A stretch of DNA of 64,000 bases from Escherichia coli. GTDB lineage: Bacteria > Pseudomonadota > Gammaproteobacteria > Enterobacterales > Enterobacteriaceae. Of the stretch, positions 3,626 to 62,652 are shown in pieces; the stretch's first letter is position 1, and every line of letters starts with the position of its first letter. Where the stretch lies: the NCBI RefSeq assembly GCF_024298765.1, contig NZ_CP101211.1; one strand, 5' to 3'. The notes under the pieces were generated by a model. The model was not told where the DNA came from and searched no databases. It saw nothing but the letters and a program-made list of their open reading frames with translations. A program made the translations under genes and the position numbers.

Positions 3626-5020
3626 ATGATGCAACTGACGCTCCAGATAGTCATCACCGATGAATCAGGCTCCAGTCGAACGGAGGAACTGATGACAATC
3701 CAGAAATCAGGGGAGACCCGGAACGACATCGGATTATCGGTGTCAGAATCCAAGCTGTTGCTGAATACGGTCCAGCAGTCGGTGGTCCAGCTGCAGGCAG
3801 ACGAATATACTCAACACCATATCCGGTGCCCTCACTGCCTTGCTGCGCGCAGAATCAAAGGCAAACAGAAAATACGGTACCGGACGCTGTTTGGCGTTAT
3901 TCCGGTATCCGGGCTTCGGGTGTACCGGTGCCGTTGTGAAGAGAGTGATACAAAGACAGTCAGTTTGCTCAGCGACTGGGCCGGCGATTATTCTCACCCG
4001 GCACTGAAATATATTGAAACCCGCTGGGCCTCGATGATCTCCTATGAAATGACGACTCGTCTGCTGAAAGATATTCTGCCGGTGGGCCACAGCCTGAATG
4101 CCTCAACGGTGAGGAATCATTTATGCCAGGTGGCGCAGCGTCTTGACGCTGAGGCTGAAGCTCATTCAGGTTTTCTTTCCGGCTGCCCCCGCGACTGGGG
4201 GAACCTGCCCAGGCCAGGAAAACCGCTTGTGGTGGGTATAGATGGTGGTTATGTTCGCGATCGGGATGACAAAAAGCGTAATTTTGAAATTATTGCCGGG
4301 AAGTCTTTTTCCGTTGGTGCGCCTGCTGACACCCGCCGCTTCGGTTTTGTTCAGAAGGATGACTGTCATCCGGAACGCAGGCTCATGACCCACCTTTCAG
4401 CGCAGGGAATGCAGGCCAACCAGCAGATATTTTTTCTGTCCGACGGCGCGGATAATCTCAGGGACCTCCAGTTCGGTATGTACCCTGAGTCAACGCATGT
4501 GCTGGACTGGTTTCATATCACCATGAGGCTGAAGGTGCTCATGCAATATGCCCGGGGACTGCTGGTATCAGATCCAGAGGCGGGGAGTAAAGTTCTGGCA
4601 CTGCTGGAAAGCATTAAACGATATCTCTGGCATGGCAATGTTGTCGCTGCGCTGGAACATATTGATAATTGCGTTATGTATTGCGATGACCCTGAACTCA
4701 GCTATCCTAGCCTGAAATCCCTGCAAAAACATCTGGATGAAATGTATACCTACATCCGGAATAATAAGATGATGATCCCAAACTACGGCGAAATGCGTCG
4801 GTACGGAGAGCCGGTATCAACCGCGTTTGTGGAATCCACGATCAATGAAGTGATCGCCAGACGAATGGCCAAAAAGCAGCAGATGCAGTGGAGCAGAAAA
4901 GGGGCTCATTATTTGTTACAGACCCGGACCGCCGTTTTGAATAACGAACTGCAGGATAAATTTGTCTGCTGGTATCCGGGTTTTCAAAGTGACGGGAAGG
5001 GACCAGCGATGGCAGCATAG
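3626..5020 (+). CDS. ISKra4-family DDE transposase
   Basis: 464-aa ORF with an N-terminal Cys cluster (CPHC...CRC) and a transposase-like core; sits against the right inverted repeat. Confidence 0.75.
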   Translation: MMQLTLQIVITDESGSSRTEELMTIQKSGETRNDIGLSVSESKLLLNTVQQSVVQLQADEYTQHHIRCPHCLAARRIKGKQKIRYRTLFGVIPVSGLRVYRCRCEESDTKTVSLLSDWAGDYSHPALKYIETRWASMISYEMTTRLLKDILPVGHSLNASTVRNHLCQVAQRLDAEAEAHSGFLSGCPRDWGNLPRPGKPLVVGIDGGYVRDRDDKKRNFEIIAGKSFSVGAPADTRRFGFVQKDDCHPERRLMTHLSAQGMQANQQIFFLSDGADNLRDLQFGMYPESTHVLDWFHITMRLKVLMQYARGLLVSDPEAGSKVLALLESIKRYLWHGNVVAALEHIDNCVMYCDDPELSYPSLKSLQKHLDEMYTYIRNNKMMIPNYGEMRRYGEPVSTAFVESTINEVIARRMAKKQQMQWSRKGAHYLLQTRTAVLNNELQDKFVCWYPGFQSDGKGPAMAA

Positions 5021-5025
5021 CTCAC

Positions 5026-5051
5026 GCTGCCCCAATATTTTTTATGCTCTC
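5026..5051 (-). repeat. Right terminal inverted repeat of the ISKra4-family element
   Basis: Reverse complement matches 2201-2226 at about 21 of 26 positions. Confidence 0.7.
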
Positions 5052-5481
5052 GGTCGTATGGAAGCTGGACCGCCTCGGTCGTGATCTTCGTCATCTCATT
5101 AATACAGTGCACGACCTGACCGCGAGGGGGACCGGTCTGAAAGTGCTGACCGGTCACGGGGCGACTATCGACACAACAACGGCCGCTGGCAAGCTTGTCT
5201 TCGGTATCTTTGCCGCACTGGCGGAGTTTGAGCGCGAACTGATTGCTGAAAGAACGACTGCAGGTCTGGCATCAGCAAGAGCCCGTGGGCGGAACGGCGG
5301 CCGACCTTATAAAATGACGCCAGTCAAACTGCGACTGGCAATGGCATCAATGGGACAATCAGAAACAAAGGTCAGTACGCTATGCCAGGAACTTGGGATA
5401 ACCCGGCAAACTTTGTACAGGCATATTTCCCCTGTTGGTCAACTGCGGGCGGACGGGATCAAGCTGCTCAACCGTGGATAA
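5052..5481 (+). pseudogene. tnpR: Resolvase gene fragment lacking its 5' end including the catalytic Ser region
   Basis: Reading frame begins VVWKLDRLGRD immediately after the IS right repeat; C-terminal helix-turn-helix present, N-terminal about 60 codons absent. Confidence 0.7.
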
Positions 5482-5538
5482 TTTGAACGGACGGAAAAAT
5501 CTGGGGTTCCGGCGTAGTACCCCTATCACCTCCACATT

Positions 5539-5552
5539 TTTGCAACAGTGCC
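5539..5552 (-). repeat. Isolated IS26-type 14-bp terminal repeat (IS6-family end remnant)
   Basis: Exact TTTGCAACAGTGCC; the adjacent inner sequence resembles but does not match IS26. Confidence 0.4.
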
Positions 5553-5802
5553 TTATAAATGGCAGCCTTATGTTTACTTGCCAAGATGGGCTACCATATG
5601 ATGTTTTATACTGAGCAATATTAATATTATCTTTAATGGAAAAATTAAGCCCACTAAGTGACCCACTGCTATATGGCTCTATTGTGAAGACGCCTGAGGG
5701 TAAAAATTTATACATGGTTGTCCCTATGTCTATTATTGCAAGGTTGACAATATTATTCGTTTTATAAATTTGAGCGTTTAAAATCACACATCAAAGCAAT
5801 TA

Positions 5803-5866
5803 GTCAGGATAAACAACAATACCCAGTGCTTCGAGAATCAGTTCTTGCTGCCAGGCTGCAATTTTG
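5803..5866 (-). pseudogene. qnrS1: qnrS1 3' fragment (last 20 codons plus stop)
   Basis: Minus-strand translation KIAAWQQELILEALGIVVYPD* continues the 5' fragment at 8397-8994 across the 8-bp duplication. Confidence 0.85.
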
Positions 5867-6686
5867 GGCACTGTTGCAAAGTTAGCGATGAGGCAGCCTT
5901 TTGTCTTATTCAAAGGCCTTACATTTCAAAAACTCTGCTTACCAGGCGCATTTCGCCCAGGGGATCACCATAATAAAATGCTGAGGCCTGGCCTTTGCGT
6001 AGTGCACGCATCACCTCAATACCTTTGATGGTGGCGTAAGCCGTCTTCATGGATTTAAATCCCAGCGTGGCGCCGATTATCCGTTTCAGTTTGCCATGAT
6101 CGCATTCAATCACGTTGTTCCGGTACTTAATCTGTCGGTGTTCAACGTCAGACGGGCACCGGCCTTCGCGTTTGAGCAGAGCAAGCGCGCGACCATAGGC
6201 GGGCGCTTTATCCGTGTTGATGAATCGCGGGATCTGCCACTTCTTCACGTTGTTGAGGATTTTACCCAGAAACCGGTATGCAGCTTTGCTGTTACGACGG
6301 GAGGAGAGATAAAAATCGACAGTGCGGCCCCGGCTGTCGACGGCCCGGTACAGATACGCCCAGCGGCCATTGACCTTCACGTAGGTTTCATCCATGTGCC
6401 ACGGGCAAAGATCGGAAGGGTTACGCCAGTACCAGCGCAGCCGTTTTTCCATTTCAGGCGCATAACGCTGAACCCAGCGGTAAATCGTGGAGTGATCGAC
6501 ATTCACTCCGCGTTCAGCCAGCATCTCCTGCAGCTCACGGTAACTGATGCCGTATTTGCAGTACCAGCGTACGGCCCACAGAATGATGTCACGCTGAAAA
6601 TGCCGGCCTTTGAATGGGTTCATGTGCAGCTCCATCAGCAAAAGGGGATGATAAGTTTATCACCACCGACTATTTGCAACAGTGCC
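5867..6686 (-). mobile_element. IS26 (820 bp, complete)
   Basis: 14-bp terminal repeats at both ends, with tnpA on the minus strand. Confidence 0.95.
5919..6641 (-). CDS. tnpA: IS26 transposase
   Basis: Identical translation to the other IS26 tnpA copies. Confidence 0.95.
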   Translation of the reverse strand: MLMELHMNPFKGRHFQRDIILWAVRWYCKYGISYRELQEMLAERGVNVDHSTIYRWVQRYAPEMEKRLRWYWRNPSDLCPWHMDETYVKVNGRWAYLYRAVDSRGRTVDFYLSSRRNSKAAYRFLGKILNNVKKWQIPRFINTDKAPAYGRALALLKREGRCPSDVEHRQIKYRNNVIECDHGKLKRIIGATLGFKSMKTAYATIKGIEVMRALRKGQASAFYYGDPLGEMRLVSRVFEM

Positions 6687-6754
6687 CGCTTAAAAATAAT
6701 AAAAGCAGACTTGACCTGATAGTTTGGCTGTGAGCAATTATGTGCTTAGTGCAT

Positions 6755-6825
6755 CTAACTTTGTTTTAGGGCGACTGCCCTGCTGCGTAACATCGTTGCT
6801 GCTCCATAACATCAAACATCGACCC
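6755..6825 (-). other. attI1 recombination site of a class 1 integron, apparently with no cassette
   Basis: 5'-conserved segment ...GTCGCCCTAAAACAAAGTTAGAT followed on the cassette strand by what I recall as the start of the qacE cassette, cut by IS26 at 6686; boundaries approximate. Confidence 0.6.
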
Positions 6826-6894
6826 ACGGCGTAACGCGCTTGCTGCTTGGATGCCCGAGGCATAGACTGTACAAAAAAACAGTCATAACAAGCC

Positions 6895-7576
6895 ATGAAA
6901 ACCGCCACTGCGCCGTTACCACCGCTGCGTTCGGTCAAGGTTCTGGACCAGTTGCGTGAGCGCATACGCTACTTGCATTACAGTTTACGAACCGAACAGG
7001 CTTATGTCCACTGGGTTCGTGCCTTCATCCGTTTCCACGGTGTGCGTCACCCGGCAACCTTGGGCAGCAGCGAAGTCGAGGCATTTCTGTCCTGGCTGGC
7101 GAACGAGCGCAAGGTTTCGGTCTCCACGCATCGTCAGGCATTGGCGGCCTTGCTGTTCTTCTACGGCAAGGTGCTGTGCACGGATCTGCCCTGGCTTCAG
7201 GAGATCGGAAGACCTCGGCCGTCGCGGCGCTTGCCGGTGGTGCTGACCCCGGATGAAGTGGTTCGCATCCTCGGTTTTCTGGAAGGCGAGCATCGTTTGT
7301 TCGCCCAGCTTCTGTATGGAACGGGCATGCGGATCAGTGAGGGTTTGCAACTGCGGGTCAAGGATCTGGATTTCGATCACGGCACGATCATCGTGCGGGA
7401 GGGCAAGGGCTCCAAGGATCGGGCCTTGATGTTACCCGAGAGCTTGGCACCCAGCCTGCGCGAGCAGCTGTCGCGTGCACGGGCATGGTGGCTGAAGGAC
7501 CAGGCCGAGGGCCGCAGCGGCGTTGCGCTTCCCGACGCCCTTGAGCGGAAGTATCCGCGCGCCGGGCATTCCTGGC
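6895..7576 (+). pseudogene. intI1: Class 1 integrase gene truncated at its 3' end by IS26 (about 227 codons kept)
   Basis: Translation [44 protein letters not shown]... matches IntI1; reading frame runs into the IS26 repeat at 7577. Confidence 0.9.
6982..7010 (-). promoter_or_regulatory. Integron cassette promoter Pc, hybrid variant (-35 TGGACA, -10 TAAACT, 17-bp spacer)
   Basis: On the cassette strand: TGGACAtaagcctgttcggttcgTAAACT inside intI1. Confidence 0.7.
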
Positions 7577-8396
7577 GGCACTGTTGCAAATAGTCGGTGG
7601 TGATAAACTTATCATCCCCTTTTGCTGATGGAGCTGCACATGAACCCATTCAAAGGCCGGCATTTTCAGCGTGACATCATTCTGTGGGCCGTACGCTGGT
7701 ACTGCAAATACGGCATCAGTTACCGTGAGCTGCAGGAGATGCTGGCTGAACGCGGAGTGAATGTCGATCACTCCACGATTTACCGCTGGGTTCAGCGTTA
7801 TGCGCCTGAAATGGAAAAACGGCTGCGCTGGTACTGGCGTAACCCTTCCGATCTTTGCCCGTGGCACATGGATGAAACCTACGTGAAGGTCAATGGCCGC
7901 TGGGCGTATCTGTACCGGGCCGTCGACAGCCGGGGCCGCACTGTCGATTTTTATCTCTCCTCCCGTCGTAACAGCAAAGCTGCATACCGGTTTCTGGGTA
8001 AAATCCTCAACAACGTGAAGAAGTGGCAGATCCCGCGATTCATCAACACGGATAAAGCGCCCGCCTATGGTCGCGCGCTTGCTCTGCTCAAACGCGAAGG
8101 CCGGTGCCCGTCTGACGTTGAACACCGACAGATTAAGTACCGGAACAACGTGATTGAATGCGATCATGGCAAACTGAAACGGATAATCGGCGCCACGCTG
8201 GGATTTAAATCCATGAAGACGGCTTACGCCACCATCAAAGGTATTGAGGTGATGCGTGCACTACGCAAAGGCCAGGCCTCAGCATTTTATTATGGTGATC
8301 CCCTGGGCGAAATGCGCCTGGTAAGCAGAGTTTTTGAAATGTAAGGCCTTTGAATAAGACAAAAGGCTGCCTCATCGCTAACTTTGCAACAGTGCC
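7577..8396 (+). mobile_element. IS26 (820 bp, complete)
   Basis: 14-bp terminal repeats at 7577 and 8383-8396. Confidence 0.95.
7622..8344 (+). CDS. tnpA: IS26 transposase
   Basis: Identical translation to the other IS26 tnpA copies. Confidence 0.95.
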   Translation: MLMELHMNPFKGRHFQRDIILWAVRWYCKYGISYRELQEMLAERGVNVDHSTIYRWVQRYAPEMEKRLRWYWRNPSDLCPWHMDETYVKVNGRWAYLYRAVDSRGRTVDFYLSSRRNSKAAYRFLGKILNNVKKWQIPRFINTDKAPAYGRALALLKREGRCPSDVEHRQIKYRNNVIECDHGKLKRIIGATLGFKSMKTAYATIKGIEVMRALRKGQASAFYYGDPLGEMRLVSRVFEM

Positions 8397-8994
8397 CAAT
8401 TTTGATACCTGATGTATCGACTTTGCGGGGATCTAAACCGTCGAGTTCGGCGTGGCATAAATTGGCACCCTGTAGGCTAAATTGCCCCCAGACATCTTCG
8501 GAAAAAACACCTCGACTTAAGTCTGACTCTTTCAGTGATGCACCCGCTAGGTTCGTTCCTATCCAGCGATTTTCAAACAACTCACATTTTTCTAAACAAA
8601 CCCTCTCCATATTGGCATAGGAAAGATTACATCCAGAAATAAATGCTGAGCAAAAGTACATACGATTACTCACTTGATGGGCAAAGTTTGTTCGGGAAAA
8701 GTTGGCACCTTTTAAATCACACGCACGGAACTCTATACCGTAGCAATTGGCATTACTGAAGTTTGCCATCGCAAGTTGGCATTGTTGGAAACTTGCATCA
8801 CGAAGATCTGCGACATCAAAGTGGCAGCCTTCGATATCACCCTGTTCAATGAACTTGCAGTTGACGAATGTCGTATCACGCAAGTTAGCACGTCGAAAGT
8901 CGCTGCGAATGAATGTGCAAGCGGTGAAGGTGAGATCACTTAAGTCTTTATGTGAAAAGTTGTGGTGCCGATATGTATGATTGTAGGTTTCCAT
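8397..8994 (-). pseudogene. qnrS1: qnrS1 5' fragment (first about 199 codons), interrupted
   Basis: METYNHTYRHHNFSHKDLSDLTFTACTFIRSDF... pentapeptide-repeat protein matching QnrS1; the supplied ORF tail is read-through into the IS26 repeat. Confidence 0.9.
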
Positions 8995-9361
8995 GAGTAC
9001 TCCTTGTTGAAAGGAGGGCTAGACTACCATTATACATATGCCAAGACATTAAAATAAAAGCCTGTTACATCAACACATTACAACCCCTCAATTTACCTGT
9101 TTTAAGTGGTCAAATTGGCGCGTAGAGCGCCTATCGCTCTTGCATTGGCACGCGGCCCTGTTGAAAAAAGTTATTCGCTTTAGATAGGGTTAGGAGAGCC
9201 GTGCTTCGCCGGTAAAAAATCGGACTATCCGACGCAGGGCGGACTCATCGGCGGAGAAGCAAACTTTGACTATATCTCCCTACACTTGGAAGAGGGCTAG
9301 ACTGGCCCCATAGATCACCAGACACTTCGACTCTCTTAAAATAAGAGGTAGTCTTGGAACT

Positions 9362-9553
9362 ATGTTTAATACCAGTCAGAACGATAAGATGGTTGAAGTG
9401 TTATCAGGACCTGAGCGGCGTCGGCGTCGTACACCGCAGGAAAAAATTGCCATTATTCAGCAGACTATGGAGCCCGGTATGACCGTGTCTCATGTCGCGC
9501 GCCTGCATGGCATCAATGCAAACCAGATATTCAAATGGCGCAAGCAATATTAA
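9362..9553 (+). pseudogene. IS2-like orfA with an in-frame TAA stop after codon 63
   Basis: ...QIFKWRKQY* then, in the same frame, [21 protein letters not shown]..., which matches the continuation of IS2 OrfA. Confidence 0.6.
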
Positions 9554-9870
9554 GACGGTTCACTGACGGCTGTTGCATCGGGCGAGGAAGTGGTGCCGGC
9601 CTCCGAACTCGCTGCCGCCAATAAGCAAATTCGCGAACTCCAGCGCCTTCTGGGCAAAAAGACGATGGAAGCCGAGATACTCAAAGAGGCCGTGGAGTTC
9701 GGCCGGGCAAAAAAATGGATTGCGCATGCGCCCTCGTTGCCTGGGAACGACGAATAAGCGACGTTTGCAGAAGTCTTGGCGTGTCGCGTGCGCAGTTGAG
9801 CATTCGGGTTCACCGGCCATCTGACTGACAGGATCGCAGACGGCAGCCCCGTTCTGACGATACCACCGTA

Positions 9871-10413
9871 TTGTCCCGGATAAACATGGCGGTGGCTGAC
9901 CTGCCGACGTATGGTTATCGCCGTGTGTGGGCGCTGCTGCGACGGGAGTCGGAGCGGGACGGCCTGCCTGTGGTTAATGCAAAGCGGGTGTATCGCATTA
10001 TGAGAACGCATAATCTGCTTCTTGAACGTAAACCCGCTGATCCTTGCCGTAAGCGGGCCCATAAGGGGCGCGTAGCAGTAGCGGAAAGTAACCGGCGCTG
10101 GTGCTCAGATGGCTTTGAGTTCCGCTGTGATAATGGCGAAAAGCTGCGGGTGACCTTCGCGCAGGACTGCTGCGACAGGGAGATCATTGACTGGGCAGCG
10201 AGCACCGGAGGCTATGACAAAGAAACGGTGCAGGATGTCATGCTGGGTGCGGTGGAAAAACGCTTCGGAAGGCAGTTGCCAACAGTGCCGGCGTTCGCCC
10301 GGTTGCTGGGACTGGAGCCTTGTACGACAGCAGTGCGAAGCCCGGAAAGCAATGGCATAGCAGAAAGCTTCGTGATGACGATAAAACGGGACTACATCAG
10401 CATCAGGATTTTA
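9871..10413 (+). pseudogene. IS2-like orfB (integrase core), C-terminally truncated
   Basis: ...[23 protein letters not shown] then the Tn3-family repeat; the true orfB start lies upstream in the -1 frame. Confidence 0.7.
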
Positions 10414-10451
10414 GGGGTCTGACGCTCAGTGGAACGAAAACTCACGTTAAG
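10414..10451 (-). repeat. 38-bp terminal inverted repeat of Tn2/Tn3 (tnpA end)
   Basis: GGGGTCTGACGCTCAGTGGAACGAAAACTCACGTTAAG; the tnpA stop lies inside it. Confidence 0.9.
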
Positions 10452-13371
10452 CAACGTTTTCTGCCTCTGACGCCTCTTTTAATGGTCTCAGATGTCCTTT
10501 GGTCACCAGTTCTGCCAGCGTGAAGGAATAATGGCCGAGCATATTGATATGTCCGTGGCAAAGCGGGGAGAGGCGTGCGATATCTTCATCATTCAGTGTT
10601 TCACCCTGCGCCCGGAGATGATCCAGGGCTGCCTGCATATAAATAGTGTTCCATAACACGACGGCGTTAGTGACCAGCCCCAGTGTGCCCAGTTGATCTT
10701 CCTGACCGTCGGTATATCGTTTTCTTATCTCACCTTTTTGACCGTGACAGATGGCTCTGGCAACGGCATGGCGACTTTCTCCCCGATTAAGCTGGGTCAG
10801 AATGCGCCGGCGGTAATCTTCATCATCAATATAATTAAGCAGATACAGCGTTTTGTTGATGCGCCCCACTTCAATGATTGCCTGAGTCAGTCCGGAAGGA
10901 CGTTCACTTTTCAGCAATGAACGGACCAGCACTGAAACCTGTACTTTGCCCAGCTTCAGGGAGCCAGCGGTCCGGATCATTTCGTCCCACTGAAGGACTA
11001 TTTTTCGGGGATCTGATTGCCCTCTGGCAATATCATTCAGCACGCCATAGTCGGCATCATGGTCCATTCGCCAGAAAACCGAAGCACCGGCATCAGCCAG
11101 GCGTGGAGAAAACTGGTATCCCAGCAGCCAGAAAAGGCCAAAGACAAGTTCGCTGGCACCTGCTGTATCGGTCATAATTTCGGTTGGATTCAGCCCGGTC
11201 TCCTGTTCCAGAAGACCTTCCAGCACAAAGATAGAGTCCCTCAGCGTCCCCGGTATAACGATGCCATGAAAGCCGGAATACTGATCGGACACAAAGTTGT
11301 ACCAGGTGATCCCTCTGTTATTACCAAAGTATTTGCGGTTCGGTCCGGCATTGATTGTTCTGACTGGCGTAACAAAGCGCATTCCATCTGCAGATGCCAC
11401 TTCTCCTCCACCCCATATCTGTGCCAGTGGCAGCGTTGCCTGAAAATCAACCAGTCTGGCATTAGCGCTGGTGATAGTTTCAGCCCGCAGATAGTTCGCT
11501 TTTGTCCAGTTCAGCCGGTGTCGGGTCAGTGCAGGAACATTTGATCTGATCAGTGGTTCCAGACCGATATTGCAGGCTTCAGCCATCAGCACGGCGCTGA
11601 TGCTGACGGGCAGATCATCAACTCTGGCACTGGCTTCACTAGCATGGAAAAACTCATCAGCAAATCCGGTATGGGCGTTAATTTCGAGCAGCAACTCCGT
11701 TAAATCCACCGGAGGGAGTAGATCACTGATCATTTTGCTCAGTCGTTTCAGACTGTCCGGCTCATCAAGACTGGCGAGGGGAGAAATTGTCAACCGGGGC
11801 TTCGGGCCAGAAACATCGAGTTCGACAGCCTCATTTTCGCAAAGACGTGCAGCAACCTGTCTGTAACGACTATCAAGCTGATGACCCAGAGATTTTATTG
11901 CTTCCTGCGGGTCTGTCGGGTGCCCCAAAGAACGATAAACCTTAATCCGGTTTGCCTGCCAGTCAGCACCCTGTAGTAATCTTGCACGAGGATCTCCCCA
12001 CCGGTTACTGCCGGTAACGTAGACATCCCTCCGCCTCAGACTATCCTGCAGTTTACTGAGAAAGCAGAGCGTGTATCCCCTGCGGGTGATATGTTTTTCC
12101 TTGTTAATCACCAGCCGTTTCCATGACCGACTGATAATTTCCGTTGGTGCGTCGTCAAAAAACTGCCGCCGTGAGCTGAACTCCCGGCTGAGGTAGTCAC
12201 AGGCATTCAGAGTGGTAACCCCGGCAGGTGCGGATGAAAATTTAACGGTATTCAGCAGATGGGGCAGGAAACGACGAACGCGCCCGTACTGCTCCACCAT
12301 TTCTTCATGAAAATTATCGTCTGAGGGCCGGGCAATTTCACGGACAAGCGTGATGATTTCAGCCAGCTTTTGCCTTGGGATGTAGCTGAACACCTCAGCA
12401 CGAATCGATTCGTCCGGTGTTTCTTCTTTCAGCAGGTACGAACATGCGCTGGCGAGCGCCAATGCAGATTTATCCAGATCCTTCAGCGAGCGGAGCCGTT
12501 TTTTCTGCCCAATCTTTCTGGCGTCACGGATGATAACGGCCAGCATGGCGTCCAGAACGTCCAATGCATCATCCAGCGCCAGCGTTTCCCATGCAAGGAC
12601 AAAGGCAACCAGAACCGCCATCCTTTTCTGCGGTGACATCCTGGCAATATTGAACACCGAAGTCATACCAGCATAACGTGCGAGATTTTTCAGGCGCACA
12701 GCCGGGAGTGTACTCAGGTTTTCAGCATGCAGGCCAAAATCGTTCAGAGTTTTCCAGCGTTCAATTGCTTCATTAAACGCCGGACCACTGATGGTCACAG
12801 GGCCCTTTTTCAGTGATTCCAGTAAAGACAGGCGGCTGCAATCAGTTGGCCCCAGCAGCATCTCCAGCTGTGAACGCTGTTCGGCTGACGGTATCAGTGC
12901 CAGTTTGTTCCACAGGCGCAACGTCGCCTTTTCCCTTACCTCTGAAATCAACCGGGTCAGCGTAGTGGCTCCGGGGAGAATAATACGATGTTGCATAAGC
13001 CACCCTGTCGCCAGATCGAAAAGCAGGCCAGGACGTTCGTTGCTTATCCAGCTCCGGGTATATAAAAGACGGGTAAGGCGAAATGTCCAGGGCCAGGCAA
13101 ATTCACGATACTGATAGTGCTGACGTATCAGCGCTGCATGCTCACGGCGGGTATTTTCCCTCTGACCGTATTCTGCAAGAACGGTGATATCACGAATCCC
13201 GAGCTGTCTGGCGGTAAAATGCCGGACGCCGGAAGGAATATGATTCATATCGGTGAGGAAGGTGCCCAGAAAACGGACACATCCAATTTGCAGGGCAATG
13301 CCCAGACGGTTGTGATCACCTCTGCTTTTTCCGATAAATTCCTTGTCTGCTTCATCAAGGTGAAAATATCG
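10447..13371 (-). pseudogene. tnpA: Tn2/Tn3-family transposase lacking about 27 N-terminal codons (IS6100 insertion)
   Basis: Native sequence begins RYFHLDEADKEFIGKSRGDHNRLGIALQ...; the first 25 codons of the supplied ORF are IS6100 sequence. Confidence 0.85.
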
Positions 13372-59669: not shown

Positions 59670-59986
59670 AGGGCTGCATCAGCCAGGCCCGGATATAAAT
59701 ACATGCTCTGCCAGGTGAGTACCACTGCCCGGTAGCCGAATGATAAGTTTTGATTTCACGGTTGCAATTTCTCCCTCTGGCATCACTGCTCCACGATGCA
59801 CCCCGATCAGCTTAGCGTCTGAAAATGAAGATGCACCGGACCTGCATGAAGCGGAACGGTGCCCAGCTGAGTGTTTGTGGGCACAATGAACCGCAATTTC
59901 ATGATGGGAATGAAAGATGGCTGGTGGCCCGCTGATATGAACGCTTACCCTGCATAACGTTACTAACCACAATCTTTTCACTAAAA

Positions 59987-60021
59987 GAAAAAAGGGTTCC
60001 TCCGCTTTAGAGGAACCCTTT
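59987..60021. terminator. Bidirectional terminator hairpin
   Basis: A-run, GGGTTCCTC / GAGGAACCC stem, then T-run. Confidence 0.55.
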
Positions 60022-60060
60022 CAAAAGGTGCCGATGGCATACTAATCCACACCCTGAAAA

Positions 60061-60079
60061 GAGGGGGGTTGCCCCCCTC
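60061..60079 (-). terminator. Hairpin directly after the hok stop codon
   Basis: GAGGGGGG-tt-gCCCCCCTC with T-rich flank on the minus strand. Confidence 0.55.
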
Positions 60080-60087
60080 TTTGTCAG

Positions 60088-60246
60088 CTACTTACCGGAT
60101 TCGTAGGCCAGGATAGCAAATACCTCCCTTGTTCCGTCTTTCATCCGCAACTCGCAAAGCGAGTTTCGTGTGAGCCAGGTGAATATCAACAGCGTTAAAC
60201 AAACTATTAATATGCACAAAACAATGGGTTGGTTCGGCATTTTCAT
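60088..60246 (-). CDS. hok: Hok-family type I toxin (52 aa)
   Basis: [52 protein letters not shown] is close to plasmid Hok/FlmA. Confidence 0.85.
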
Positions 60247-60344
60247 GGCCTTCTTCTCCTTGCATTTAAGCAGGCAAGAGGCTACGCTGTGTGTGACTAG
60301 CATACAGGGGCCTCGGGTTGTACTGACCCCAGAAAGTTGGACAG

Positions 60345-61196
60345 TTAAACACGAGGCATATAGGTCTGATTCCGATATTCAATTGGAGTCAGACCTTTTA
60401 ATTTCAGGCTAATTCTTCTGCTGTTGTAGTATTCAATATATTCCGTAACAGCATCCTTCAGCTCGCTTATATTACTGAACTCATCAAGATAAAAACACTC
60501 CGACTTTAAGGTTCCAAAGAAACACTCCACCACAGCATTATCCAGACAATTGCCTTTTCTGGACATGCTTTGTTTAATACCATGTTCTTTAAGGATATTT
60601 TGATATCTTCTCATACGATACTGCCATCCCTGGTCAGAGTGCAGAACAGGATGCTCGTGAGGATTAAGCTTTTTGAATGCCTGATCGAGCATATTCTCGA
60701 CCATGTTCATCACTGGTCTTTCCGAAAGGCTGTAAGAAATAACTTCGTTGTTGAAGAGATCTATTACTGGAGACAAATACAGCTTGCGCCCATTGACTGC
60801 AAATTCAGTAACATCGGTAACCCACTTCTCGTTTGGCCGCGTAGCCTTGAAATCTCTTTGGAGAACATTGGGGGCGGTTTGCCCTACCTCTCCTCTGTAA
60901 GAGCGGTATCGCTTGACCTTAATCGCTGCCTTCAGTGAGAGGATTCCCATCAGGCGCTGAACAGCTTTATGGTTAATCTGTTTCCCTTCTCGATGAAGAG
61001 ACAGCGTTACCCTACGGTATCCGTATCGGCCTCTATTCTCATGATAAATCTCACCAATACGCTTTTTAACGTCCGCATACTTGTCAGGCTTGCTGAGAGC
61101 CTTTAGATGGTAATAAAACGTACTGCGCGGTATCTCCGCAGCCCTGAGAAGCTCATCAAGAGGATAAAACTGCCTTAGCTCGTTGAGTACTTTCAC
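60345..61196 (-). CDS. insK: IS150 OrfB (InsK, integrase core)
   Basis: [33 protein letters not shown]..., DDE integrase core; overlaps orfA by 4 nt in the -1 frame. Confidence 0.9.
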
Positions 61197-61714
61197 TTTT
61201 TCGTGGGATGAGCTAAGGCTTTCAGCTTTTTTAGATACACAAGCCGCGTTTCAAGAAATCGAACTTGCCTTTCAAGATCCTCAATGCGTCGGTCTTTTGA
61301 CAGCTCCAATGCTGATGCCGCTTTTTCTGGATCAACTGATATTGCAATGTTTCTTTTGGTGCCAATCTTGAGCGCGCGTAAACCAGCTTCTCCGCGCTCT
61401 TCATAAACCTTCAGCCACCTGGCTACAGAACCACTACCAGCAAGCATAAAGTGAGCAGCAGCCTGATTAAGGGACATGTGCTGCTCGATCACCGCTTTCA
61501 CGACCTTAATACGCAACTCAGGATCAGCACTAACACCTTTAGGTTTGGGAATTAAACCTTTTTCTCCATGTTTTTCATAGAGGGCAACCCATGTCCTGAC
61601 CTGGGTTCGGGGGACACCAAAACGTGCCGAGATGATCCTGTAACCATCATCAGTAGTGAAGTAGTGATTCACGACTTCAAGGCGCTTTTCAAAAGGGTAT
61701 TTTGGCTTTGACAT
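61193..61714 (-). CDS. insJ: IS150 OrfA (InsJ)
   Basis: MSKPKYPFEKRLEVVNHYFTTDDGYRIISARFGVPRTQVRTW... Confidence 0.9.
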   Translation of the reverse strand: MSKPKYPFEKRLEVVNHYFTTDDGYRIISARFGVPRTQVRTWVALYEKHGEKGLIPKPKGVSADPELRIKVVKAVIEQHMSLNQAAAHFMLAGSGSVARWLKVYEERGEAGLRALKIGTKRNIAISVDPEKAASALELSKDRRIEDLERQVRFLETRLVYLKKLKALAHPTKK

Positions 61715-62046
61715 ATCAGGGGCTATTCCATTTCATCGTCCAACAAAATGGGTGCAGTACAGGTTAATTGAAAAATTACTCGGGGCTTTCTGCTTTTACC
61801 ACAGTCAAACAGTGTTACCGCTGGCTGGGGCAAAAGCCTCCAGCACCAGCGTCATTATATCACTCTGCCCTGATCAGCCAAACACCCTGCCTGCATAAAT
61901 CATTGATTTATAATTTATTTGACATGAGTCACTTCCGGTTGTCGGAGACAGTCTTTTTACACTAAAGAAAAGGGTAACGGGCAGCTGCTTGGTCGGAACA
62001 TACAGTGCAGTTCCTGCCCGTTTAATTTCCGGATGCAATGGTAGGA

Positions 62047-62652
62047 TCAGGAGGCACTGGTTCCGTTGATTAGGGAAAGCTTATGTGCCTGAATACGGCT
62101 GTATTCGAGATGGGATGGAATATTACAGATGCGCTCCAGTCGATCATGCAGCCTCGTGTAGGTCAGTCGATGAATACCGGACATTTCATCAAGTAGCCAG
62201 CGCTTGATGTAAGGGTTACAGGAAAGCCGGGCAAGATCGTCGTCATCCACTTCGTCAAAGAACCAGTACTGCTCCATCGGGACTACCTGAAATATCCACG
62301 GCCGGGGATAGTCCCCTGTGACAACCAAAAACCATGCGAGAAAGCATAGACACAGCTCAACGATCATCAGCATCGAAAATTGCGAATAACTTAGACCAGG
62401 CACATAGGGTGAACTATCCGCAACATACCCCCTGAACAATTCCGCCACAAGGTAGCCCAATAGCGACAAGGCCAGCATCAGGGTCAGGATTAATCCCCCA
62501 TTAAACGCTACCGAAGCCTTTTGAACCCGATCAGGTGCTGTCCGGCTGCGATAGTTGGTCACTACTCTTTCTACAAGTGCCCTTATGGCAGCCTGTTCTT
62601 TACTGACATCAGCTCCGGAAAAACCGGACGGGCTTTTATTTAATTCAGTCAT
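62047..62652 (-). CDS. Hypothetical membrane protein
   Basis: Two hydrophobic helices; 201 aa. Confidence 0.45.
   Translation of the reverse strand: MTELNKSPSGFSGADVSKEQAAIRALVERVVTNYRSRTAPDRVQKASVAFNGGLILTLMLALSLLGYLVAELFRGYVADSSPYVPGLSYSQFSMLMIVELCLCFLAWFLVVTGDYPRPWIFQVVPMEQYWFFDEVDDDDLARLSCNPYIKRWLLDEMSGIHRLTYTRLHDRLERICNIPSHLEYSRIQAHKLSLINGTSAS

Follow-up and report, generated by a model that had tools for sequence, protein, structure and literature searches.

An IS150 insertion at a recurrent target site splits the hok/mok/sok locus of an IncHI2A plasmid backbone and most likely disarms it

What becomes of a plasmid killer locus when an insertion sequence lands in the control region of an intact toxin gene? 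The question is raised by a stretch of 64,000 nucleotides from Escherichia coli (contig NZ_CP101211.1; hereafter the window), where a complete IS150 lies immediately upstream of a hok-family gene. An earlier note on this DNA gave the distance between the element and the start codon of hok as 72 bp, and the gap is indeed 72 nt (60247-60318). The toxin gene and the element comprise the following features.

60246..60088, minus strand: hok toxin gene, 52 aa, intact (open reading frame list and family profiles)
60319-61761, minus strand: complete IS150, 1443 bp, with IRL at 61761 and IRR at 60319; its transposase genes are co-directional with hok
61714..61193, minus strand: IS150 orfA (open reading frame list)
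61196..60345, minus strand: IS150 orfB (open reading frame list)
61762..61764: distal copy of the GGT target-site duplication
60316..60318: proximal copy of the GGT duplication, ACC in the hok sense, abutting the mok SD
60362..60405, plus strand: inward-facing terminator-like hairpin at the IS150 right end, a 15-bp stem followed by UUUUAAUUU (terminator scan and folds)

The description of the Hok homologue as intact was borne out. The NCBIfam profile NF007279, whose cut-off is 73 bits, matched all of its 52 residues (1-52) with a score of 122.8 bits; this and the match to Pfam HOK_GEF PF01848 (E = 1.8e-17) place it in the Hok/Gef family. The element likewise proved to be what it had been called, a complete IS150 with a GGT duplication. 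It has the properties of this IS3-family member, namely a length of about 1.44 kb, imperfect terminal inverted repeats beginning with TG (TGTACTG...), a 3-bp duplication, and orfA and orfB linked by a −1 frameshift, for which the slippery sequence A AAA AAG lies at 61232..61226; the resulting OrfAB fusion has 456 aa. Identity to the IS150 of K-12 is 98.8%, and a sequence identical to the one in the window is annotated by PGAP as an IS150 family transposase with programmed frameshift. The terminator scan call at its right end itself spans 60362-60396, and the stem of this inward terminator is kept in the related element ISKpn8 despite four substitutions.

The control elements of hok were located on both sides of IS150, as listed below.

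60088..60315, minus strand: 71-aa mok frame, with its SD CGAGG at 60315..60311 and AUG at 60303 (open reading frame list, alignment, NCBIfam match to residues 20-71)
61854..61881, minus strand: hok mRNA promoter, TTGGCT-16 nt-TATAAT with TG (promoter scan, 10/12 matches)
61765..61847, minus strand: hok mRNA 5' leader, with the 5' end GGUGCUGGAGGC (tac) and an upstream hairpin; towards its end the leader is complementary to the stem of the Sok terminator
61765..61797, plus strand: detached 3' part of sok, the distal arm of the Sok stem-loop and the U-tract (UAAUUGAAAAAUUACUCGGGGCUUUCUGCUUUU) (fold of the reconstructed Sok, homology with K-12 sokE)
60260..60318, plus strand: sok promoter and retained 5' part of sok, −35 TTGCAT at 60260-60265, −10 TACGCT at 60283-60288, spacing 17
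59990..60082, minus strand: hok mRNA 3' UTR, with a GC hairpin at 60082..60058, fbi CGGCACC at 60033..60027 and an intrinsic terminator at 60022..59990

The 71-aa mok frame is continuous and in frame with hok. In the alignment its start falls on that of mok in three reference loci (R1-type, hokB and hokC), and the −10 region of the hok promoter likewise falls on its counterparts there. The sok promoter was placed by positional homology with these three loci, the annotated K-12 sokE serving for calibration; the promoter scan gave no call at this site, where the consensus match is too weak. The sok start is predicted near 60291-60296, leaving approximately 23-28 nt of sok before IS150. The hairpin seen after hok in the earlier note is present, but it is an internal hairpin of the 3' UTR (60058-60082), and the terminator of the mRNA lies further downstream.

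To what locus do these two parts belong? Joining 59901-60318 to 61765-62300, with one GGT kept, produced a sequence identical (100%) to a 954-bp stretch of the IncHI2A plasmid pMCR_915_E1. Because the uninterrupted sequence exists at this identity on a sibling IncHI2 plasmid, the IS150 insertion was a clean one. The genes around the hok locus in the window are those of an IncHI2A backbone, with a MobH relaxase, TraD and many small hypothetical genes. Aligned with known hok/sok loci, as the earlier note had proposed, the rebuilt pre-insertion locus is collinear end to end with a hok/sok locus of the IncF R1 type and with two chromosomal loci, hokB and hokC, in the order promoter, tac, Sok stem complement, mok SD/AUG, hok SD/AUG, Hok, GC hairpin, fbi and terminator. 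The minimum-energy fold of the reconstructed 413-nt mRNA paired nucleotides 1-10 with 366-375, which is the tac-fbi closure typical of such mRNAs. The Rfam sok model, which covers 157 nt, ends at the hok AUG and has a gathering score of 59, matched the uninterrupted allele with 81.1 bits. The window gave only two sub-threshold halves flanking IS150 (46.7 and 34.4 bits), with model positions 1 to about 84 matching the leader at 61765..61847. The ancestral allele is therefore a member of the Rfam sok family, and the present allele a disrupted member.

IS150 sits within the control region, upstream of mok; 3 nt separate it from the mok SD and 12 nt from the AUG, and the junction in the window reads ...GGGGTCAGTACA/ACC/CGAGGCC. 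The cut falls in the proximal arm of the stem-loop that ends Sok, after some 25 nt of the sok gene, and no complete antisense sok gene, with promoter, 5' tail and terminator stem-loop, is found in the window. On the far side of the element (61765-61881), now 1.4 kb from mok/hok, are the hok promoter, the tac/ucb leader at the mRNA 5' end and the stem of the Sok terminator; the promoter, cut off from these genes, points into the IS150 left end, and tac and fbi are 1446 nt further apart than in the reconstructed mRNA. Still together on the other side are the sok promoter with the first 25 or so nucleotides of Sok, the SD and AUG of mok, hok, fbi and the terminator. The earlier note was right to place the element inside the mok/sok control region, where it splits the Rfam sok match. 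The mok frame, however, is not displaced: its SD and AUG are still attached to hok, and what the element cuts is the sok gene and the hok leader. It had also allowed that all control elements might lie between 60247 and 60318, outside the reach of the insertion; the hok promoter, tac/ucb leader and Sok terminator stem lie beyond IS150.

We conclude that this hok/mok/sok type I toxin-antitoxin locus of the IncHI2A backbone, split by IS150 at a hot spot, is most likely disarmed as a killer module, with hok silent; we put the probability of this reading at about 0.65. Killing by hok/sok of R1 requires a stable hok mRNA, closed between its 5' and 3' ends (tac-fbi) and made from its own promoter, together with the short-lived Sok. 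Since mok/hok lost both the promoter and tac, which are needed for killing, the locus most likely no longer works in this way. The promoter scan predicted no outward sigma-70-like promoter on the minus strand at the IS150 end (60319-60420), and the terminator scan predicted no minus-strand terminator between 61854 and 60077, so that hok would be carried only by read-through transcripts, which would cross IS150 from the hok or IS150 promoters. In such an RNA the sub-terminal GCCUCG of the element would pair with the mok SD CGAGGC, forming a hairpin predicted to sequester the SD, and the mok SD was paired in the fold of the read-through RNA. A chimeric Sok-IS150 antisense RNA, predicted to run from the sok promoter to the inward IS150 terminator, could also pair with these transcripts. 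The predicted chimera is about 110 nt long; a free 5' tail of 17 nt, complementary to the region of the mok start, is followed by a stem and the terminator (z = −5.95). The modelled SD hairpin and chimeric antisense would probably keep the hok read-through transcripts silent. The parallel with chromosomal hok loci drawn in the earlier note is documented in the literature.

The second outcome offered there, in which hok is expressed from an outward promoter of IS150 and escapes antisense control, is hardly credible. In its favour, the circle-junction promoter of IS3-family elements may draw on a −35 box in the right end, and the mok SD/AUG are only 3-15 nt from the IS end. Yet nothing sigma-70-like was predicted there, and the sok promoter and the 5' end of Sok are retained; as the inward terminator of IS150 could end a chimeric Sok begun on these 25 or so nucleotides, a toxin without antisense control is unlikely. 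Uncontrolled Hok is lethal, whereas the junction is present in 676 plasmid records and homologous junctions in about 10% of complete E. coli genomes. Stable carriage by hundreds of plasmids, together with the missing outward promoter prediction, makes an IS-driven toxin improbable, and of the two outcomes the disarmed locus is the better supported.

Plasmid records in PLSDB gave 676 filled sites and 232 uninterrupted ones, so that about three quarters of the records with this hok locus are interrupted, although these counts, like the genome counts given below, are inflated by shared ancestry. The numbers show that the IS150-filled arrangement is tolerated. They also mean that hok/sok, one of the presumed maintenance modules of IncHI2 plasmids, is usually broken or rewired, which bears on models of plasmid persistence; mcr-1 is among the resistance genes for which these plasmids are major carriers. 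Annotation pipelines still report an intact "Hok family toxin" at the interrupted IncHI2 locus.

A point against a disarmed locus is that neither hok nor mok nor the sok promoter is damaged, so some residual activity may persist. It is conceivable, if rather unlikely, that the pair is rewired and still working, with read-through mok-hok checked by the chimeric antisense RNA of about 110 nt and some killing or stress-response activity kept. The integrity of sok promoter, mok and hok, the minus strand free of predicted terminators across IS150, the inward terminator predicted at 60362-60396 and the Sok-like architecture of the chimeric RNA are all consistent with this. On the E. coli chromosome, sokE+ reverses the phenotype of a sokE::IS150 allele (PMC11551753), which indicates that such insertions are not necessarily silent. 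The rewired mRNA, however, would have no nearby tac to close and stabilise it, and its mok SD is predicted to be sequestered.

Is the position of the element an accident? Insertions of IS150-group elements recur at this point of hok loci, a mutational hot spot that the literature has already noted. One rule describes the insertions: IRR, then the 3-bp duplication, then the sequence C(G/T)(A/G)GG(C/G)C, also written C(G/A)(A/G)GGC, of the mok SD and Sok stem base. As IRR always faces the C(G/A)(A/G)GGC motif at this main site, the transposase genes are co-directional with hok. The rule holds in seven compared loci (L003, L004, L005, L018, L021, L022 and L023), at the hokB, hokC and hokE junctions, and in de novo events of mutation-accumulation experiments. 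ISKpn8 occupies the homologous site in the same orientation in a second IncHI2 lineage (duplication ACC) and in the hok locus of a Klebsiella IncF plasmid (CCA), and IS150 does so in an IncF R1-type hok/sok next to psiB (CCA). IS150-like right ends were found at the homologous site in two species of Buttiauxella, in Lelliottia and in Klebsiella grimontii.

Counts of natural junctions were as follows.

hokB: exact IRR-duplication-SD junction, co-directional, in 638 of 5426 complete E. coli genomes; opposite orientation in 13
hokE: main-site junction, co-directional, in 553 genomes; opposite orientation in 3 or fewer
hokC: main-site junction, co-directional, in up to 945 genomes, cross-hits included

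The 13 opposite insertions in hokB lie 15 bp away, in the other arm of the Sok-stem palindrome, with an outward-facing IRR beside CGGGGCC. At the plasmid locus of the window, the plasmid junction search found 0 insertions at this mirror site versus 676 at the main site. IncF plasmid hits to the first 88 nt of the mirror-site query come from a third site of insertion, located where the hok mRNA begins, rather than from the mirror site. Orientation statistics rest on these paired junction searches and on the mutation-accumulation data; the result of 4/4 from a pattern scan of genome contigs is biased, because only main-site junctions are detectable there.

De novo insertions in E. coli B mutation-accumulation lines followed the same pattern. 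Approximately 47 IS150 insertions were recorded, 14 of them in hok loci. All 7 main-site events were co-directional with hok, and all 5 events at the mirror site, in the other arm of the palindrome, had the opposite orientation. The authors of these studies named trg/mokB a hot spot, and insertions in hokC were also reported in E. coli B lines (PMC5289635, PMC5419217). Coordinates in the main text of PMC5419217 do not match REL606 at trg/mokB and hokE, because the ancestor REL4536 carries an inversion, and the gene-relative distances of its supplement were used instead. Recurrent mokB alleles have been reported from the long-term evolution experiment, sokE::IS150 from XL1-Blue and more than 400 isolates (PMC11551753), and a genome-wide survey of mobile genetic elements (MGE) listed hok/sok loci among their hot spots in both E. 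coli and K. pneumoniae.

Authors of evolution experiments and of the MGE survey read insertions in hok/sok as adaptive loss of redundant functions. Recurrence would then reflect selection for hok inactivation only, with no target preference of IS150, which we consider very improbable. Inactivation would neither fix the position to the same 3 bp nor make orientation follow the arm of the palindrome, as it did in 7/7 and 5/5 events. Moreover, the latter events come from mutation-accumulation lines, a design that keeps selection to a minimum, and different members of the IS150 group share the site in divergent hok loci.

Outside hok loci only two de novo IS150 sites (n = 2) could be mapped safely; one (TAT/CAGGGC) fits the motif and the other (CAC/TGTCCG) does not. 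Mimicry by the target of that part of the inverted repeats which the transposase binds was considered and found unconvincing. The IRR sub-terminal sequence ACACGAGGCAT resembles the target CGAGGC, with a 10-nt identity at the R1-type locus, but IRL has no such motif, in IRR it is 31 nt away from the tip instead of at it, and an exact 10-mer may well occur by chance. The resemblance of GTTG(G/A) to the inverted-repeat core is weaker and equally unconvincing.

The event class is already known, and the window is a further instance of a precedented event. For the exact rule of position, motif and arm-set orientation, and for its extension to plasmids and ISKpn8, no statement was found in the published reports consulted. 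The rule turns scattered reports of "IS150 in sok" into one defined target specificity, which spans plasmid and chromosomal loci and several relatives of IS150 and is directly testable.

The main and mirror sites differ greatly between nature and experiment. Main to mirror ratios were 638:13 (hokB), 553:3 or fewer (hokE) and 676:0 (plasmids) in natural sequences versus about 7:5 among de novo events. Shared ancestry may explain much of the natural bias. The difference would also be compatible with selection against the mirror arrangement, where transcription from the sok promoter enters the transposase gene in sense. For the rewired pair, the natural excess is consistent with better persistence of the arrangement that keeps the antisense RNA, although the ratios may stem from a few old insertions inherited by large clades.

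By a bolder interpretation, which we regard as quite unlikely, IS150-group elements have evolved a sequence-directed specificity for the Sok terminator palindrome, using plasmid and chromosomal addiction modules as a safe landing site where insertion at the main site is self-compensating. The right end of the element would supply a replacement stem and terminator for a still functional chimeric Sok and add the GCCUCG segment that masks the mok SD, while the weak hok promoter would feed the transposase gene. Mirror insertion would instead put the strong sok promoter before the transposase gene and be purged in nature. If true, this would explain why the de novo ratio is about 7:5 and the natural one 50:1 or more.

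Comparison with known systems sets the disarmed IncHI2A locus in context. Among its closest known counterparts is hok/sok (parB) of R1, whose sequence we take to be that of the IncF locus L003. The two are collinear from promoter to terminator, and the empty IncHI2 allele passes the Rfam sok threshold and, judged by its sequence, has all elements of an active R1-like system. However, nucleotide similarity is only about 70%, and the locus in the window is interrupted. The mok frame of the window is in frame with hok as in chromosomal loci, whereas mok of R1 overlaps hok in another frame.

The insertion preference also has a precedent. IS1397, which we assume may be a member of the IS150 subgroup, and ISKpn1 target REP/BIME, whereas the target of IS150 here is the terminator of a type I antitoxin, the determinant being a sequence motif or a structure. 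Both of these IS3-family elements insert into palindromic units in a site- and orientation-specific manner (PMC1525189); here the palindrome is the Sok terminator stem.

Chromosomal sok::IS150 alleles (sokE, PMC11551753; trg/mokB and hokC, PMC5289635, PMC5419217) share with the window the element, the 3-bp position relative to the mok SD, the orientation and the 3-bp duplication. They differ in that the chromosomal hok loci of E. coli are of uncertain activity, whereas the locus in the window belongs to a conjugative IncHI2 plasmid. E. coli K-12 has a hokA/sokA::IS150 allele (Pedersen and Gerdes 1999, cited in PMC11551753), which is similar in that IS150 lies between the hok promoter with the 3' part of sok and the mok/hok part. 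There, however, the element has the opposite orientation, lies 32 bp from the hokA ATG and has no matching duplication (GTA versus AAC), and mokA is truncated. The orientation, distance and lack of a duplication rule out the same event; the K-12 allele is a different, rearranged one.

IS186/IS421 next to hokC and hokE represents a second IS family that recurs in hok loci, and in REL606 IS421 lies beside hokC. On many sibling IncHI2 plasmids IS421 is inserted in the GC hairpin just after hok, downstream of the toxin gene and outside sok; the window has no IS421 copy.

Among de novo insertions in mutation-accumulation data, IS150 used the main site (3 bp directly 5' of the mok SD) and the mirror site (the other arm of the Sok-stem palindrome, with the IS in the opposite orientation) about equally, at 7:5. 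In sequenced genomes and plasmids, the main site outnumbered the mirror site by at least 50-fold, as estimated from junction counts at hokB, hokE and the IncHI2 hok locus.

IS150 also recurs at a third position within hok loci, the extreme 5' end of the hok mRNA in ST131-type IncF plasmids, with the insertion junction CGCT|TGAGGC. It was occupied in the comparison locus L029 and in at least nine other IncF plasmids.

L029 (NZ_CP015086.1), 529-1971: IS150 at the 5' end of the hok mRNA

As at the main site, the element is co-directional with hok, and its IRR adjoins a YGAGGC motif. Mutation-accumulation and evolution data revealed another repeated IS150 target, the ldr/rdl type I toxin-antitoxin repeats. 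When mapped on the ldrA-C/rdlA-C repeats of K-12 (L027), the reported ldrB(-84) position of IS150 falls within a long CCCCCG...CGGGGG hairpin in the leader/rdlB region.

IS150-like ends were also found next to other genes in two hok loci.

L023 (Buttiauxella agrestis), 5690-10652: hok locus with an IS150-like right end and a distant transposase
L021 (Lelliottia), 4527-5594: hok locus with an IS150-like end and a toxin-antitoxin pair

In Buttiauxella, the right end adjoins hok at the hot spot, and the matching transposase (67% amino acid identity) lies 3.5 kb away. The interval holds a LysR regulator, an ORF resembling an esterase, and a toxin-antitoxin pair of the DUF1778/GNAT type. Lelliottia has only the 41-nt end and the toxin-antitoxin pair. 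Either an IS150-family element that carries passenger genes or a composite that has decayed could account for this arrangement.

IS421 (IS186-like) is a further insertion in many sibling IncHI2 plasmids, as in L001 (6178-7514). Its target is the GC hairpin GGGGGGTTGCCCC directly past the hok stop codon, flanked by a 13-bp duplication, and this placement resembles that of IS186/IS421 adjoining hokC and hokE in K-12 and REL606. The hok locus of the window lacks this copy.

60064-60076: IS421 target position, unoccupied in the window

The window also contains an alternative mok-like frame.

60092-60265, minus strand: 57-aa ORF overlapping hok, R1 Mok-like

This ORF scored 54.6 bits against NF010277 (R1 Mok), under the cut-off of 110, and is labelled by PGAP as a partial DUF5431 pseudogene. 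The upstream AUG preceded by an SD lies in the hok frame, not in that of the 57-aa ORF, owing to a single-nucleotide difference relative to R1.

Elsewhere in the window, two Rfam matches indicate that the resistance region holds two putative class 1 integron attI sites.

6731-6805, minus strand: AAC_AAD_leader/attI match, 71.3 bits
19947-20019, minus strand: AAC_AAD_leader/attI match, 64.2 bits

A 93-aa backbone ORF, whose counterpart in the window lies directly beyond 62652, was present in two comparison loci.

L002, 3023-3304: 93-aa ORF
L004, 4381-4662: 93-aa ORF

The RGI prediction in PLSDB names it "Brucella suis mprF, defensin resistance", which looks like an annotation artefact because the ORF is so small.
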